NCBI GenBank assembly: GCA_965263295.1
Contig: OZ253665.1
Coordinates: forward strand, 2,343,851 to 2,407,850
Direction of reading: 5' to 3'
Source: Spirochaetia bacterium
Lineage (GTDB): Bacteria; Spirochaetota; Spirochaetia; SP-2023
DNA: 64,000 nt
Below are positions 51,415 through 56,917 of this stretch, one piece after another. Position numbers and translations under genes: made by a program. The notes beneath the pieces are model-generated. The model did not search any database, was not told the DNA's origin, and worked only from the letters and a program-made list of their open reading frames with translations. The stretch's first letter is position 1. Each line of letters opens with the position of its first letter.

Positions 51415-52869
51415 TCAATCCTTTCTCGCCTTTATCGGCATAATCGTTCCCATATTCATTATACCGTTAGGATCAAAAGCTCTTTTCAGTGTTTGGAGCA
51501 TGTAGTAGGACGAGCCATATTCCTGCGTGATGAAATGCGTCCGATGTTTGCCAACCCCGTGGTGGTGGCACATGGAACCTCCAAGCTTCAAAGTCTCTTC
51601 CACTATGATATTTTGAATCGGATCGTGATATTTCGAGATTTCCTGTTCGGGTTTTATATCGACTATGTCATAATAATACATAAAATACAGGTTCGTACCC
51701 GTCATGTAACTGTGAGATGAATGCCCTCCGAGCATGGTTAAATCCGGTATCTCTTTTCTGACCCTGTCCAGGCTATTCCGGTAAATATCGTATATAATAT
51801 CCCAGTTGCCAGAAACTTCGGTGGTGAATCCAATATTCTTCGTCTCGGCAATTTCTATCCTTTCTTTCTCTACATTGTCCGCATTCCAGTTCAATTGATT
51901 AAACCAGTCTATAATCAATTGGTCATCTACGCGCTCCTGCCCCGAATATTTGGTTACAATTTCCTCAATGGCTTCTCCGGTAGCATCTGCAATCCGCTTG
52001 GGCCCCTCGGCGACAAATATCAAGATACATTTATTTTCCGAGAAGTGTCCGAAGTGATAATAGCCATCTTCCGGATCATATAGGCGAGCTACTGACGGTT
52101 TATACCCTTCTACCATCACTTCTCTGAGTATTTCAAAGCCCGTTTTCATATCGTCAAGCTTGTAGCCATAGAATTTAAGGTTCTCTGGTCTATATTTAAA
52201 TATTTTAACTGTCACCTCCGTGATATAACAAAGCGCCCCTTCATTTCCCAATACCAGATGCCTGATATCTGGCCCCGCCGCCCTTCTGGGAACATTTTTA
52301 ATCCTTGAAATGCAAGCATTCGGAAATACGACTTCCGCACCGACGAGCATATCTTCTATTCCGCCGTAAAGAGTCGAAAACTGCCCGGTGCTTCTAGTGG
52401 CGACCAGGCCGCCCATTCGCGCCAGGGGCTTGGATTGCGGGGAATGCCCCGTGGTATAGCCCTGTTCCCTCAATTGATTTTCTACATCCTCAAGACACAC
52501 GCCGCACTGGCAAGTCACCATCATGTTATACGTATCAATTTTAAGGACTTTATTCATCTGGGAACCGTCGACGACGACAGAGTTTTCCAATGCTGTCTCA
52601 AGACCTCCCTCCGTGGCAGAACGTCCGGTCGCCGGAACTACGTTTACGCCATTTTGATCGGCAAATTGCAATACCTGGGCCACTTGCTCCGTATTTTGCA
52701 CATAGGCTACCGCAGCCGGAATGGGCTGTGTGTAAATTCCACAAATATCTTCATATTTCCTGTAACGATCGACACTACTGGATTTTAATATCTGCTCGTC
52801 CGTTGCGACATTTTCCACCCCTAAAATATCAATCAAACTTCCTACAATTTGTTTTCTCGATAACCCCAT
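51415..52869 (-). CDS. ygcU: FAD-linked oxidoreductase, YgcU / alkyl-DHAP synthase-like (VAO/PCMH family)
   Basis: SATEGGLET, GYTTGHSPQSKPLA, GGLVATRS.GQFSTLYG, HSSHSY, GGSMCHHHGVGK; closely recalls E. coli YgcU. Confidence 0.88.
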   Translation of the reverse strand: MGLSRKQIVGSLIDILGVENVATDEQILKSSSVDRYRKYEDICGIYTQPIPAAVAYVQNTEQVAQVLQFADQNGVNVVPATGRSATEGGLETALENSVVVDGSQMNKVLKIDTYNMMVTCQCGVCLEDVENQLREQGYTTGHSPQSKPLARMGGLVATRSTGQFSTLYGGIEDMLVGAEVVFPNACISRIKNVPRRAAGPDIRHLVLGNEGALCYITEVTVKIFKYRPENLKFYGYKLDDMKTGFEILREVMVEGYKPSVARLYDPEDGYYHFGHFSENKCILIFVAEGPKRIADATGEAIEEIVTKYSGQERVDDQLIIDWFNQLNWNADNVEKERIEIAETKNIGFTTEVSGNWDIIYDIYRNSLDRVRKEIPDLTMLGGHSSHSYMTGTNLYFMYYYDIVDIKPEQEISKYHDPIQNIIVEETLKLGGSMCHHHGVGKHRTHFITQEYGSSYYMLQTLKRAFDPNGIMNMGTIMPIKARKD

Positions 52870-52967
52870 AACAAAATCTCCTCAATATTTTGATAAAATT
52901 GACAGCTATTTTACGCTATTTTAAACCCATTTGAAACAATTCGGACATAATTATACCCCAATTGTAG

Positions 52968-54398
52968 CTATTTAAATATTTTATATGACTCTCTGAGCAA
53001 CTCATCCGTATGTGATGTTACGGTTCTGTAAATATTGTTCAATTTGTTATATATTATGGTATTTTCCTCATCAGGAAAAAAATGATTGCTGACTTTAACC
53101 ATATGTTTTATAGCTTCTGCATAATCTTTGTAAACATCAGTGGCCACGGCTACAGAAATTGCCGAACCAAGGCTTGCCGAACCGTTTACCACATTTCTTG
53201 CGACAGGTATGGCGAATACATCGGCAAATATCTGCATCAACAGGTCGCTGTGTGAGCCACCTCCTGAAACAATTATATTTTCCAGCTCTATGCCGAGTTC
53301 ACAAAGCATATTATCGACGTGCGTTTTCATCGTCAAAGCAATGGCCTCAAGTATTGAACGGTATATATGCGCCCTCGTATGCCTGCCGTCAAATCCTATC
53401 ATCATGCCTTTTTTAAACGGCGTATTCGTCGGAGCCAGCCAGTCCAAAACAGTCATGAGTCCATTGCTTCCCGCCGGGACTTTTTGCGCTTCTTGATTTA
53501 AATATTCTTCAGGTGAAACTTTCTGTTCTTTTGCGCTGACAAGCAGTTCTTTGCCCAGCAAATCTTTAAACCAGCTTACAGTCCACATCCCCCTGCGTAT
53601 ACCAGAACTCTCATAAAGGTAATTTTTAGGTACTGCCGCAAAATTTGTCCAGAATTGCGCAGTTCCCTTGCGATTCTCACAACCTTTTACCATGGCTGTA
53701 ATATATGTTCCCAATGAAACAAGGGCCGTTTTTTCATGGATCAGACCGGCGCCGAGCGCTTCTACCGCTTTGTCATTTGCAGTCGCTACTACCGGAATTC
53801 CGCCGGGCAAACCCGTGATCCGAGACGCTTTTTCCGTTAAATGTCCCAGAATTTCTCCGGGCATTTTTAGTTCAAACAGCATTTCTCTGGGCATATTACA
53901 GGCAACATATGCTTGAGTATCCTGACTCCACTGCCATGTATCTGTATCTATGGGCCATACTCCCTGATAATTTGCCGCAGTATCGTTGAACTGCCCCGTA
54001 AGTCTGTGCGTAATATAACCTGATGTAGTTGTTATATAACGAACCAGAGGGTTCGTATCTTCATGAGCCTTGGAAACTCGGGCATCCATCCAACTCATCA
54101 CGGGCTGGGCAAGGGTTCCGTCTTCCCGCAGTAAAACCCTGCAAAAACGGATTGTGCACAGACCGATGCCGATGATATCAGAAATATTTCCACCAAAATT
54201 TTTTAATGCCTGGCGACACGCGCCCACGATTGAATCCCACAGATCATCTTCAGGGTGCTCGACTATCGCGGGATCGGCCAAATGCATTGGCCTTAAAGAC
54301 TCCCTGCCCTCACAGATGACATTCCCCCGCAGATCAAATATAAGCACTTTTGTGCTCTGAGAACCGCCATCCAACCCTATAATATATTGCTTACTCAT
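52968..54398 (-). CDS. ygcE: FGGY-family carbohydrate kinase, YgcE-like
   Basis: MSKQYIIGLDGGSQSTKV, EHPEDDLW, SWMDAR, NDKAVEALG, VSLGT, SGGGS. Confidence 0.85.
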   Translation of the reverse strand: MSKQYIIGLDGGSQSTKVLIFDLRGNVICEGRESLRPMHLADPAIVEHPEDDLWDSIVGACRQALKNFGGNISDIIGIGLCTIRFCRVLLREDGTLAQPVMSWMDARVSKAHEDTNPLVRYITTTSGYITHRLTGQFNDTAANYQGVWPIDTDTWQWSQDTQAYVACNMPREMLFELKMPGEILGHLTEKASRITGLPGGIPVVATANDKAVEALGAGLIHEKTALVSLGTYITAMVKGCENRKGTAQFWTNFAAVPKNYLYESSGIRRGMWTVSWFKDLLGKELLVSAKEQKVSPEEYLNQEAQKVPAGSNGLMTVLDWLAPTNTPFKKGMMIGFDGRHTRAHIYRSILEAIALTMKTHVDNMLCELGIELENIIVSGGGSHSDLLMQIFADVFAIPVARNVVNGSASLGSAISVAVATDVYKDYAEAIKHMVKVSNHFFPDEENTIIYNKLNNIYRTVTSHTDELLRESYKIFK

Positions 54399-54433
54399 GA
54401 AAATACTCGCCTTCAAAAGCAAAATTTACCCGT

Positions 54434-55981: not shown

Positions 55982-56065
55982 GCTAACGATCTCCAAGCAA
56001 TTTCTGATGTGAAACACAAAACATTTTATCGCAATTTTAAATAGTATAGCCATGAATTATAGGAT

Positions 56066-56842
56066 TTATCTCACCAAATAACCTCCATCCACTGCCAATA
56101 TGTGACCATTTACATAGTCAGATGCCCGGCTCGCCAAGAAGACTGTCGTGCCCATCAGATCCATGGTATTGCCCCAACGATTCGCGGGAATATGATTTAG
56201 TACCTTTTGATTTGTCTCGGGGTTACTTCTCGTCTTTGTCGTTATGGCCGTTGCGTAATATCCAGGAGCGATGCCATTTACCTGAATATTATACTGAGCT
56301 AATTCATCGCAATAAGCCTTTGTGAATCCCGCCAATCCATGTTTTGTCGCTGAATACGCCGGGGACCACTGCCCGCCCAGGAACGAAAACAGAGAGCAGA
56401 TATTAATTATTTTCCCGCTTTGCTGCGGGATCATGACCTTTGCAGCTTCATAGCTGAGTTCAAATGCGGCCGTCAGATTTAGCGCGAGCATTGGGTCCCA
56501 TTCTGCTCGGCCAAATTCTTGCACTTCCGCCAATTTGCAGATTCCCGCACTGTTGACCAGTATATCCAGAGAACCCAGCTTTTCGACGCACTCATTAATC
56601 ACCCTTGCGGCCGCTCCCTTGGCGGTAATGTCTATTTTCAGGAACTCCATTCTTCCCCCTTCCTTTTCAATTAGGGGCCTTGTCGTTCCATCGTCGTCAA
56701 TAATGCTCGGTATAAATATACTGGCTCCCGCCTTCGCCAGAGCCAAGGCAAAAGCCTTTCCCAGTCCGGTATTTCCGCCTGTCACGATGGCATTCTTACC
56801 TTTTAAAGAAAAAAATTCCATGGAAAAATCATTTATATCCAT
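56066..56842 (-). CDS. ygcW: SDR oxidoreductase, YgcW/KduD-like
   Basis: FSLKGKNAIVTGGNTGLG, NICSLFSFLGGQWSPAYSATKH (YxxxK), DGGYLVR; closely recalls E. coli YgcW. Confidence 0.9.
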   Translation of the reverse strand: MDINDFSMEFFSLKGKNAIVTGGNTGLGKAFALALAKAGASIFIPSIIDDDGTTRPLIEKEGGRMEFLKIDITAKGAAARVINECVEKLGSLDILVNSAGICKLAEVQEFGRAEWDPMLALNLTAAFELSYEAAKVMIPQQSGKIINICSLFSFLGGQWSPAYSATKHGLAGFTKAYCDELAQYNIQVNGIAPGYYATAITTKTRSNPETNQKVLNHIPANRWGNTMDLMGTTVFLASRASDYVNGHILAVDGGYLVR

Positions 56843-56888
56843 TGGCTGATTGCTCCTCTAAACCAAATAATCCAAAAATAATTAATTC

Positions 56889-56917
56889 ATTAAAGCACGA
56901 GTTTGCGGGCCTGTCAA
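56889..56917 (-). promoter_or_regulatory. sigma70 promoter of the ygcW-BCCT-ygcE-ygcU operon
   Basis: Minus strand TTGACA-GGCCCGCAAACTCGTGC (17 nt)-TTTAAT, about 45 nt upstream of the ATG, which has an AGAGGAG RBS. Confidence 0.7.

Follow-up and report, generated by a model that had tools for sequence, protein, structure and literature searches.

What does an operon degrade when its three enzymes belong to a long-orphan gene cluster of Escherichia coli and its transporter to the BCCT family? The question is raised by four co-oriented, minus-strand open reading frames (ORFs) at positions 51415-56842 of a 64,000-nucleotide stretch (the window) of a Spirochaetia bacterium genome, contig OZ253665.1. 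They encode a short-chain dehydrogenase/reductase (SDR), a BCCT carrier, an FGGY kinase and an FAD oxidase, separated in this order by 84, 35 and 98 nt. Judging from sequence, predicted structure and gene neighbourhoods, we propose that the operon allows the glycerol moiety of a glyceryl-ether betaine to be salvaged, a reading to which we give a probability of about 0.55. That the substrate is, in broader terms, an onium-bearing glycerol derivative is quite likely. Its specific identification as the head group of the betaine lipid diacylglyceryl-trimethylhomoserine (DGTS), namely glyceryl-O-(N,N,N-trimethyl)homoserine left after lipase action, is a tentative one; the head groups of diacylglyceryl-hydroxymethyl-trimethyl-beta-alanine (DGTA) or diacylglyceryl-carboxyhydroxymethylcholine (DGCC) take up the remaining weight of the glyceryl-ether betaine reading.

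The ORFs, the Pfam matches of their products (adh_short; BCCT, E 3e-117; FGGY_N/C; FAD_binding_4 with FAD-oxidase_C) and their solved relatives agree with the original prediction, made from the sequence of the window, of an operon for an SDR, a BCCT transporter, an FGGY kinase and an alkyl-dihydroxyacetone-phosphate (alkyl-DHAP) synthase-like flavoprotein. The kinship with E. coli ygcW, ygcE and ygcU that it asserted holds at full-length identities of 75%, 52% and 65% to the annotated genes, and each of the three enzymes has one close copy in the genome. The four genes represent a genuine, minimal form of the ygc cluster. In E. coli the orthologous SDR, kinase and flavoprotein are distributed over ygcW-ygcU-ygcS-ygcR-ygcQ and yqcE-ygcE, with ygcN-ygcO-ygcP alongside, whereas here they form one four-gene unit in which a BCCT carrier replaces two major facilitator superfamily (MFS) carriers. 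In the host genome (G000; one contig, 92.6% complete by markers) the electron-transfer flavoprotein (ETF; YgcQR in E. coli) gave neither a PF01012 match nor a tblastn match to ETF references, and FixC-like YgcN, GlpP-like YgcP, YqcE and YgcS were likewise without a match (by tblastn for glpP and ygcN).

An indication of the chemistry comes from the flavoprotein, for which the predicted likeness to alkyl-DHAP synthase (ADPS) is borne out. The solved protein most similar to YgcU is ADPS, in sequence (E 2e-48) as well as in fold (TM 0.82, for a predicted model of pLDDT 86), and on both measures it lies nearer to ADPS than to the lactate and glycolate dehydrogenases (GlcD/LctD). YgcU has the VAO/PCMH fold with the HHH motif and the catalytic Arg and Tyr: ADPS residues R419, S527, Y578 and H615-617, whose roles are taken from PDB titles (R419H, Y578F), a review and general background, align to R262, T349, Y395 and H435-437 of YgcU, which are invariant in 30 of 30 aligned sequences. 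ADPS residues 441-524, on which the question of the long hydrophobic tunnel and the gating helix for C16 chains turns, do not align with YgcU by sequence. Despite these equivalences, YgcU is only about 23% identical to ADPS/AGPS (PDB 4bby, 2uuu), has 484 rather than 658 residues and lies in a context of catabolic and solute-carrier genes, not of ether-lipid synthesis genes. ADPS forms a flavin-DHAP iminium and expels the C1 substituent, in a catalysis that requires oxidised FAD and involves zero net redox change (PMC3509576). The active-site residues of YgcU would fit an ether of DHAP as the substrate of such a reaction.

The kinase points to a glycerol that carries a substituent. Aligned with the host's own GlpK, all 42 YgcE representatives keep D10, R83, W103 and D245, whereas the position of E84 is C, F or Y in every one of them (F85 in the window kinase), that of Q246 is K in 41 of the 42 (K210 in the window kinase), that of F270 is a small residue, and about 40 residues are deleted internally. 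GlpK E84 is the residue that binds O1, the far hydroxyl of glycerol; its loss from an otherwise preserved glycerol-binding core fits a glycerol with a substituted C1 oxygen. The window kinase fails the GlpK model cut-off (115 bits against 498), and among solved structures it is closest to LsrK, glycerol kinases and xylulokinase. The SDR, YgcW, is of the canonical type (TGGNTGLG at 21, NSAG at 97, S150, Y163xxxK167) that resembles KduD yet scores under both KduD cut-offs (NCBIfam/TIGRFAM; 340.8 against 369 and 273.7 against 338.85). The combination of carrier, FGGY kinase and dehydrogenase follows the logic of glycerol catabolism (GlpF-GlpK-GlpD with GlpP) and of the KduD-type sugar-acid pathway, and relatives of the operon have a GlpP-family regulator; the departures of kinase and SDR from GlpK and KduD, together with a separate GlpK-GlpF-DhaKL cluster elsewhere in the genome, set the operon apart from both.

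The carrier scores well above the Pfam PF02028 cut-off (392 bits against 27) and keeps three of the four aromatic residues of the DddT pocket: W140, W321 and Y324 of DddT correspond to W144, W328 and W331 (pocket residues for the DddT/TmaT comparison from PMC11708041 and PMC13270143). It differs from DddT, TmaT, BetP and CaiT in an Asn in place of the fourth aromatic, W320 of DddT, and in lacking the GxGxG motif of TM3; the second Na2 threonine of DddT is Ala here, and the protein falls under all NCBIfam BCCT cut-offs (glycine-betaine, choline and carnitine equivalogs). A quick tree, with SH-aLRT support only, places 16 of 21 ygc-linked BCCTs, including that of the window, in one clade (SH-aLRT 100), three other BCCT lineages having been recruited separately. 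A reciprocal search starting from the carrier found ygc-type BCCTs in 8 of 35 and 2 of 11 genomes of two clostridial groups; in all eight carrier genomes other than the search centres the BCCT lies among ygc genes (seven with ygcU, one with ygcE at a contig end). Since a search that starts from the carrier returns ygc loci, this BCCT is a ygc-dedicated subfamily. Three BCCTs included as background also fell into the clade, one of them at a ygc locus. The second (L207, G304:C24, 146-7864) is an Asn-type paralogue, 53% identical to that of the window, whose neighbours are an acyl-CoA dehydrogenase, a pair of class III CoA-transferases and another BCCT, in a layout that resembles the carnitine pathway. 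The third (L208, G304:C3, 6064-12730) accompanies a glycerate kinase and a Zn-dehydrogenase, along with a regulator of the sugar-diacid type and a gene of the beta-eliminating-lyase family; this may be a further orphan pathway for a betaine.

A survey of carriers beside ygcU homologues, which the original prediction had called for, shows that two unrelated families of betaine carriers, together with MttB quaternary-amine methyltransferases, recur at these loci. Loci were drawn from GTDB contigs (26), metagenomes (80 of 556), genome searches and E. coli; removal of short duplicates and one repeat left 131 loci, which cluster at 85% YgcU identity into 50 groups, a group being credited with a feature if any member carries it. 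Betaine-family carriers are found near ygcU in 20 of the 50 groups (BCCT in 11, OpuAC-type ABC systems in nine, one of these recognised solely from its ATPase). Restricting the count to the 27 groups flanked by at least 5 kb of sequence on each side gives 16 with a BCCT or OpuAC carrier, and 18 if MttB is counted; grouping at 75% identity gives a betaine carrier in 8 of 19 groups and 6 of 10 well-flanked ones. The chance of meeting a betaine carrier in an 18-kb window is about 3% in the host genome, and 0.5-3% for BCCT in five other genomes, although related groups are not independent and a binomial enrichment figure is overstated. Linkage of BCCT to this genome alone had been set beforehand as grounds for rejecting the idea; the BCCTs in 11 of the 50 groups show that it extends well beyond it. 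Of the binding proteins of these ABC systems, the one tested has the ergothioneine, ProX and OpuC binders as its nearest relatives. The suggestion that a BCCT had been swapped in for the E. coli carriers stands in so far as a BCCT occupies the place of MFS carriers here, but is too simple, because BCCT and YqcE-type MFS carriers occur together in many loci (for example L011, L020, L121, L141, L213 and L216-219) and because E. coli YgcS is the best match, at 53% (next 35%), of an MFS carrier inside the betaine-demethylation module described below.

Other neighbours bear on the glycerol moiety and on the lipid source. Sixteen of the 50 groups have an antiterminator of the GlpP family, which senses glycerol phosphate. 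In four groups from the order of genome G303, where ygcU occurs in 11 of 201 genomes, a hydrolase of the platelet-activating factor (PAF)-acetylhydrolase family is encoded beside ygcU or close by, as expected if the substrate derives from a lipid. The ETF-free minimal variant recurs, 10 of the 27 well-flanked groups likewise having no nearby ETF; where ETF genes do stand beside ygcU, a second, LctD-like oxidase often accompanies them. At five ETF-less loci from the order of G303 (L129, L130, L133, L134 and L135) ygcU is directly followed by a conserved 453-aa PF12831 flavoprotein whose role could be to reoxidise YgcU or to process the betaine once freed; an atlas search with it returned only the description "FAD-dependent oxidoreductase". 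G303 itself (locus L010) is labelled Polaribacter, a label that may be wrong: the locus has 45% GC, and the flavoprotein of a related locus clusters mostly with Pseudomonadota. The surveyed set also includes four divergent YgcU homologues (43-54%; L023, L025, L128 and L142), maybe of another subfamily, which are accompanied by other kinases, sugar/nucleoside ABC genes or GlpA-like dehydrogenases and probably represent sister pathways for other C1-substituted glycerols.

The identity of the substituent is suggested by genes that adjoin the operon in anaerobes. MttB directly follows ygcU-etfBA in L040, L042, L043 and L065 and precedes ygcW in L051, and in several anaerobes the neighbours of ygc genes include MttB genes free of stops, together with corrinoid and pterin-binding partners. 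This arrangement resembles the non-pyrrolysine MttB quaternary-amine methyltransferase systems of the MtgB type, with the difference that the module here also comprises a racemase, an opine dehydrogenase and a PanB paralogue, the corresponding genes lying beside the operon in the L040, L054, L056 and L139 groups. The racemase is of the two-cysteine proline-racemase type or the Asp/Glu-racemase type, in either case an alpha-amino-acid racemase family; the dehydrogenase most resembles N-(1-D-carboxyethyl)-L-norvaline dehydrogenase; and the PanB is distinct from the copy in an apparent panBCD cluster, with residues changed near E. coli V214/H216. BCCTs of the module are 41-44% identical to the BCCT of the ygc locus L002, an 83% paralogue of which adjoins MttB. 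According to a recent study, PanB partly supports the condensation of formaldehyde with pyruvate to 4-hydroxy-2-oxobutanoate in vivo (10.1101/2025.02.17.638773). Homoserine betaine would account for all five module enzymes. Since cleaving the ether of the DGTS head would release homoserine betaine, the module favours DGTS over DGTA, so that of the two lipids originally put forward one gains and the other fits less well. The heads of DGTA and DGCC were ranked below DGTS because they do not fit alpha-amino-acid racemases and PanB; proline betaine was rejected as the module substrate because it leaves PanB unexplained.

These observations suggest a model for the pathway. The BCCT carrier would import the head group by way of its trimethylammonium group; YgcW would oxidise C2 with NAD+ and YgcE phosphorylate C3, in either order, to give 1-O-R-DHAP, a polar analogue of alkyl-DHAP. 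From its conserved residues, YgcU may then carry out ADPS chemistry in a catabolic setting, in which a C1 carbanion and a flavin N5 adduct lead to loss of R-O- and water acts as the second substrate, yielding DHAP for glycolysis with zero net redox change. Where relatives possess ETF, hydrolysis of the iminium may instead give an oxidised triose phosphate, the electrons passing to ETF. That no ETF was found in the host favours redox-neutral cleavage, or direct flavin reoxidation; the oxidative variant stays open, as ETF genes follow ygcU in 30 of the 50 groups. MttB, PanB, the racemase, the opine dehydrogenase and a PAF-acetylhydrolase-family lipase were not found in the host genome, which with GlpK, GlpF and DhaKL can use triose phosphate but probably not the betaine; this would most likely be exported or kept as an osmolyte. 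In module-bearing anaerobes, two MttB demethylations would give N-methylhomoserine, followed by L-to-D racemisation, opine-type oxidation to 4-hydroxy-2-oxobutanoate and PanB-type cleavage to pyruvate and methylene-tetrahydrofolate, converting homoserine betaine to pyruvate, methylamine and C1 units. We tentatively advance the ygc cluster, whose occurrences are scattered over several phyla, as the missing bacterial route for betaine-lipid head groups, with ADPS-type flavin ether cleavage as its key step and the MttB-racemase-opine dehydrogenase-PanB module as its lower pathway; this full scheme is less secure than the salvage of the glycerol unit itself.

A number of findings weigh against the salvage of a glyceryl-ether betaine. 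Eleven of the 27 well-flanked groups have neither a BCCT nor an OpuAC carrier, among them the large E. coli-like and Listeria groups with MFS carriers only, and sugar-type ABC genes lie upstream in L021, L023, L045 and L069. ETF genes are needless for a purely redox-neutral enzyme, yet frequent. A ygcU match is present in 5098 of 5426 E. coli genomes, a near-universal occurrence for which DGTS is no obvious abundant substrate in the gut. The position of E84 is variable across the FGGY family. The Trp of the DddT pocket that is replaced, W320, is N327 in the window carrier and Asn in 120 of its 120 best homologues; the change could make room for a polar tail or be a sign of a shift away from onium ions. 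BCCTs also transport trimethylamine and dimethylsulfoniopropionate (PMC11708041, PMC13270143). The opine dehydrogenase occurs in 5 of 401 genomes of a Bacillota sample, four of the five being without a ygcU match, and in only 3 of 10 ygc-positive genomes tested; the coupling of module and ygc genes has p 0.0004 pooled and 0.05 within the unbiased sample alone.

Some of the same evidence would be accommodated by a different onium C3 compound without a C-O-C ether, either an N- or S-linked 2,3-dihydroxypropyl onium or a glycerophosphocholine-like diester, from which YgcU would expel trimethylamine, dimethylsulfide or a phospho-head. Such a compound accounts equally well for the enrichment of BCCT and OpuAC carriers, for the GlpP regulator and for an ADPS-like site, and the SurE- or ARMT1-type phosphatases that adjoin some loci would suit it; we consider it unlikely, as the adjacent alpha-amino-acid racemase, opine dehydrogenase, PanB paralogue and lipase-family neighbours are left unexplained, and GlpQ-type phosphodiesterases split glycerophosphocholine more cheaply. 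Somewhat less likely again is the degradation of a neutral rare sugar, polyol or simple alkylglycerol, with YgcU as an ETF-linked dehydrogenase of a phosphorylated intermediate and a BCCT that has shifted to an uncharged solute. The KduD-like SDR, the nearest relatives of the kinase, the Asn of the BCCT pocket, the MFS-only and sugar-ABC loci and the frequency of ETF genes all speak for it, as does the reported activation of E. coli yqcE-ygcE by CRP (PMC8085971). It demands, however, that four BCCT lineages, OpuAC-type ABC importers and MttB genes have come to the locus by coincidence, and it sits poorly with the proximity of YgcU to ADPS rather than GlcD/LctD and with a host in which no ETF was found. 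ADPS is itself biosynthetic and its catalytic residues are kept in YgcU, so that the operon might be imagined to convert DHAP, through an exchange of the ADPS type, into an ether-linked glycerol compound for export, either an osmolyte or a precursor of lipids; a kinase instead of a phosphatase, the lack of a recurrent acyltransferase or acyl-CoA reductase in the loci, and the importer-type ABC systems and catabolic regulators (GlpP, DeoR, RpiR) found in them make this very improbable.

The operon was likely gained horizontally, to judge from its distribution and relatives. A ygcU match is found in 11 of 301 genomes of the window's phylum, the host included, and in none of three congeners or two other members of the order (79-94% complete). 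Among the 301 genomes of an actinomycete class survey, the search-centre genome gave the only match. The nearest named protein relatives are from Bacillota (YgcU 76%, BCCT 73%), and in a FastTree analysis the window YgcU separates from the YgcUs of its own phylum and groups with three sequences (support 98), two of which come from ETF-less loci. The GC content of the operon genes, 44.7-47.2%, is below the genome ORF mean of 50.5% but within its range.

The coordinates of the operon and its immediate surroundings are collected in Table 1. The promoter originally assigned to the operon is present in the sequence (TTGACA at 56917-56912, TTTAAT at 56894-56889; this exact pattern occurs twice in the 2.4-Mb genome) and plausibly acts as one. 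It is missing from the promoter-scan list because its -10 element lacks the conserved A at position 2. The leader folds at only -3.1 kcal/mol and leaves too little space for a GlpP-type terminator; being short and unstructured, and with glpP absent, it rules out a leader-RNA switch. The BCCT start at 55981, preceded by a GGAG ribosome site, is preferred to the longer mechanical start of a 539-aa ORF at 56053.

Table 1. Features of the ygc operon region, in window coordinates.
Feature	Position	Strand	Basis and remarks
Sigma-70-like promoter TTGACA-17-TTTAAT (plausible)	56889..56917	-	Read from sequence; leader of about 47 nt, AGAGGAG ribosome site
ygcW orthologue, classical SDR, 258 aa	56066..56842	-	Motifs, Pfam, identity to E. 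coli YgcW; proposed C2-hydroxyl dehydrogenase
BCCT carrier, 515 aa, ygc-dedicated subfamily	54434..55981	-	Pfam, alignments, tree
ygcE orthologue, FGGY kinase, 476 aa	52968..54398	-	Pfam, alignment to GlpK
ygcU orthologue, VAO-fold flavoprotein, 484 aa	51415..52869	-	Sequence, fold, ADPS residues; ether cleavage proposed
Weak hairpin and T run, possible terminator	51261..51276	-	11 such found against 9.8 expected, which is chance level
Decayed 144-nt copy of mid-ygcW, 85% identity	57237..57380	-	Sequence comparison

Several further features of the window were noted. The partial ygcW copy, which is frameshifted, has the same orientation as the operon and is found some 400 nt upstream of it; it may be a scar of operon insertion or of a lost duplicate. 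A decayed repeat at 49870-50566 is matched in part at 27 other places in the genome (77-89%); one of its frames resembles the C-terminus of an IS5-type transposase with an internal stop, and a Pfam search with a 58-aa piece of the repeat gave no match. At 57388-59984 an 11-nt tandem repeat (four copies) is followed by an 845-aa ORF without a Pfam match, whose paralogues at G000:C1:1688148-1690739 (98% DNA identity over 1.5 kb) and 462476-464959 suggest a recombining, lipoprotein-like family. The region 43625-45034 encodes a pyridoxal-phosphate-dependent (PALP) enzyme with an N-terminal cysteine cluster, presumably cysteate-synthase-like.

The cluster itself is already known, with its function unassigned; what our analysis suggests as new is the link to a betaine-lipid head group. 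A literature search on the ygc gene names returned promoter, screen and regulon mentions, and a function was assigned nowhere among the matches listed. D-serine induces ygcU 1.69-fold, although deletion of ygcU left the D-serine repression of a type III secretion reporter in place (PMC13012123), and overexpression of YgcS raised the yield of nicotinamide mononucleotide (PMC8601175); in the text consulted, neither study names a physiological ygc substrate. Searches on bacterial betaine-lipid catabolism, which covered mainly open-access texts, found no ether-bond cleavage route, and a search on MttB with homoserine found no such pathway.

In algae, fungi, protists and phosphate-starved bacteria, betaine lipids make up a major class of membrane lipid that contains no phosphorus. 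For an E. coli gene cluster long without an assigned function, our proposal names a substrate and offers a hypothesis that can be tested directly with three enzymes amenable to purification; the four-gene, ETF-free version described here is the simplest system for testing ether cleavage. If the proposal is true, the catabolic use of ADPS chemistry would constitute a new mode of biological ether cleavage.

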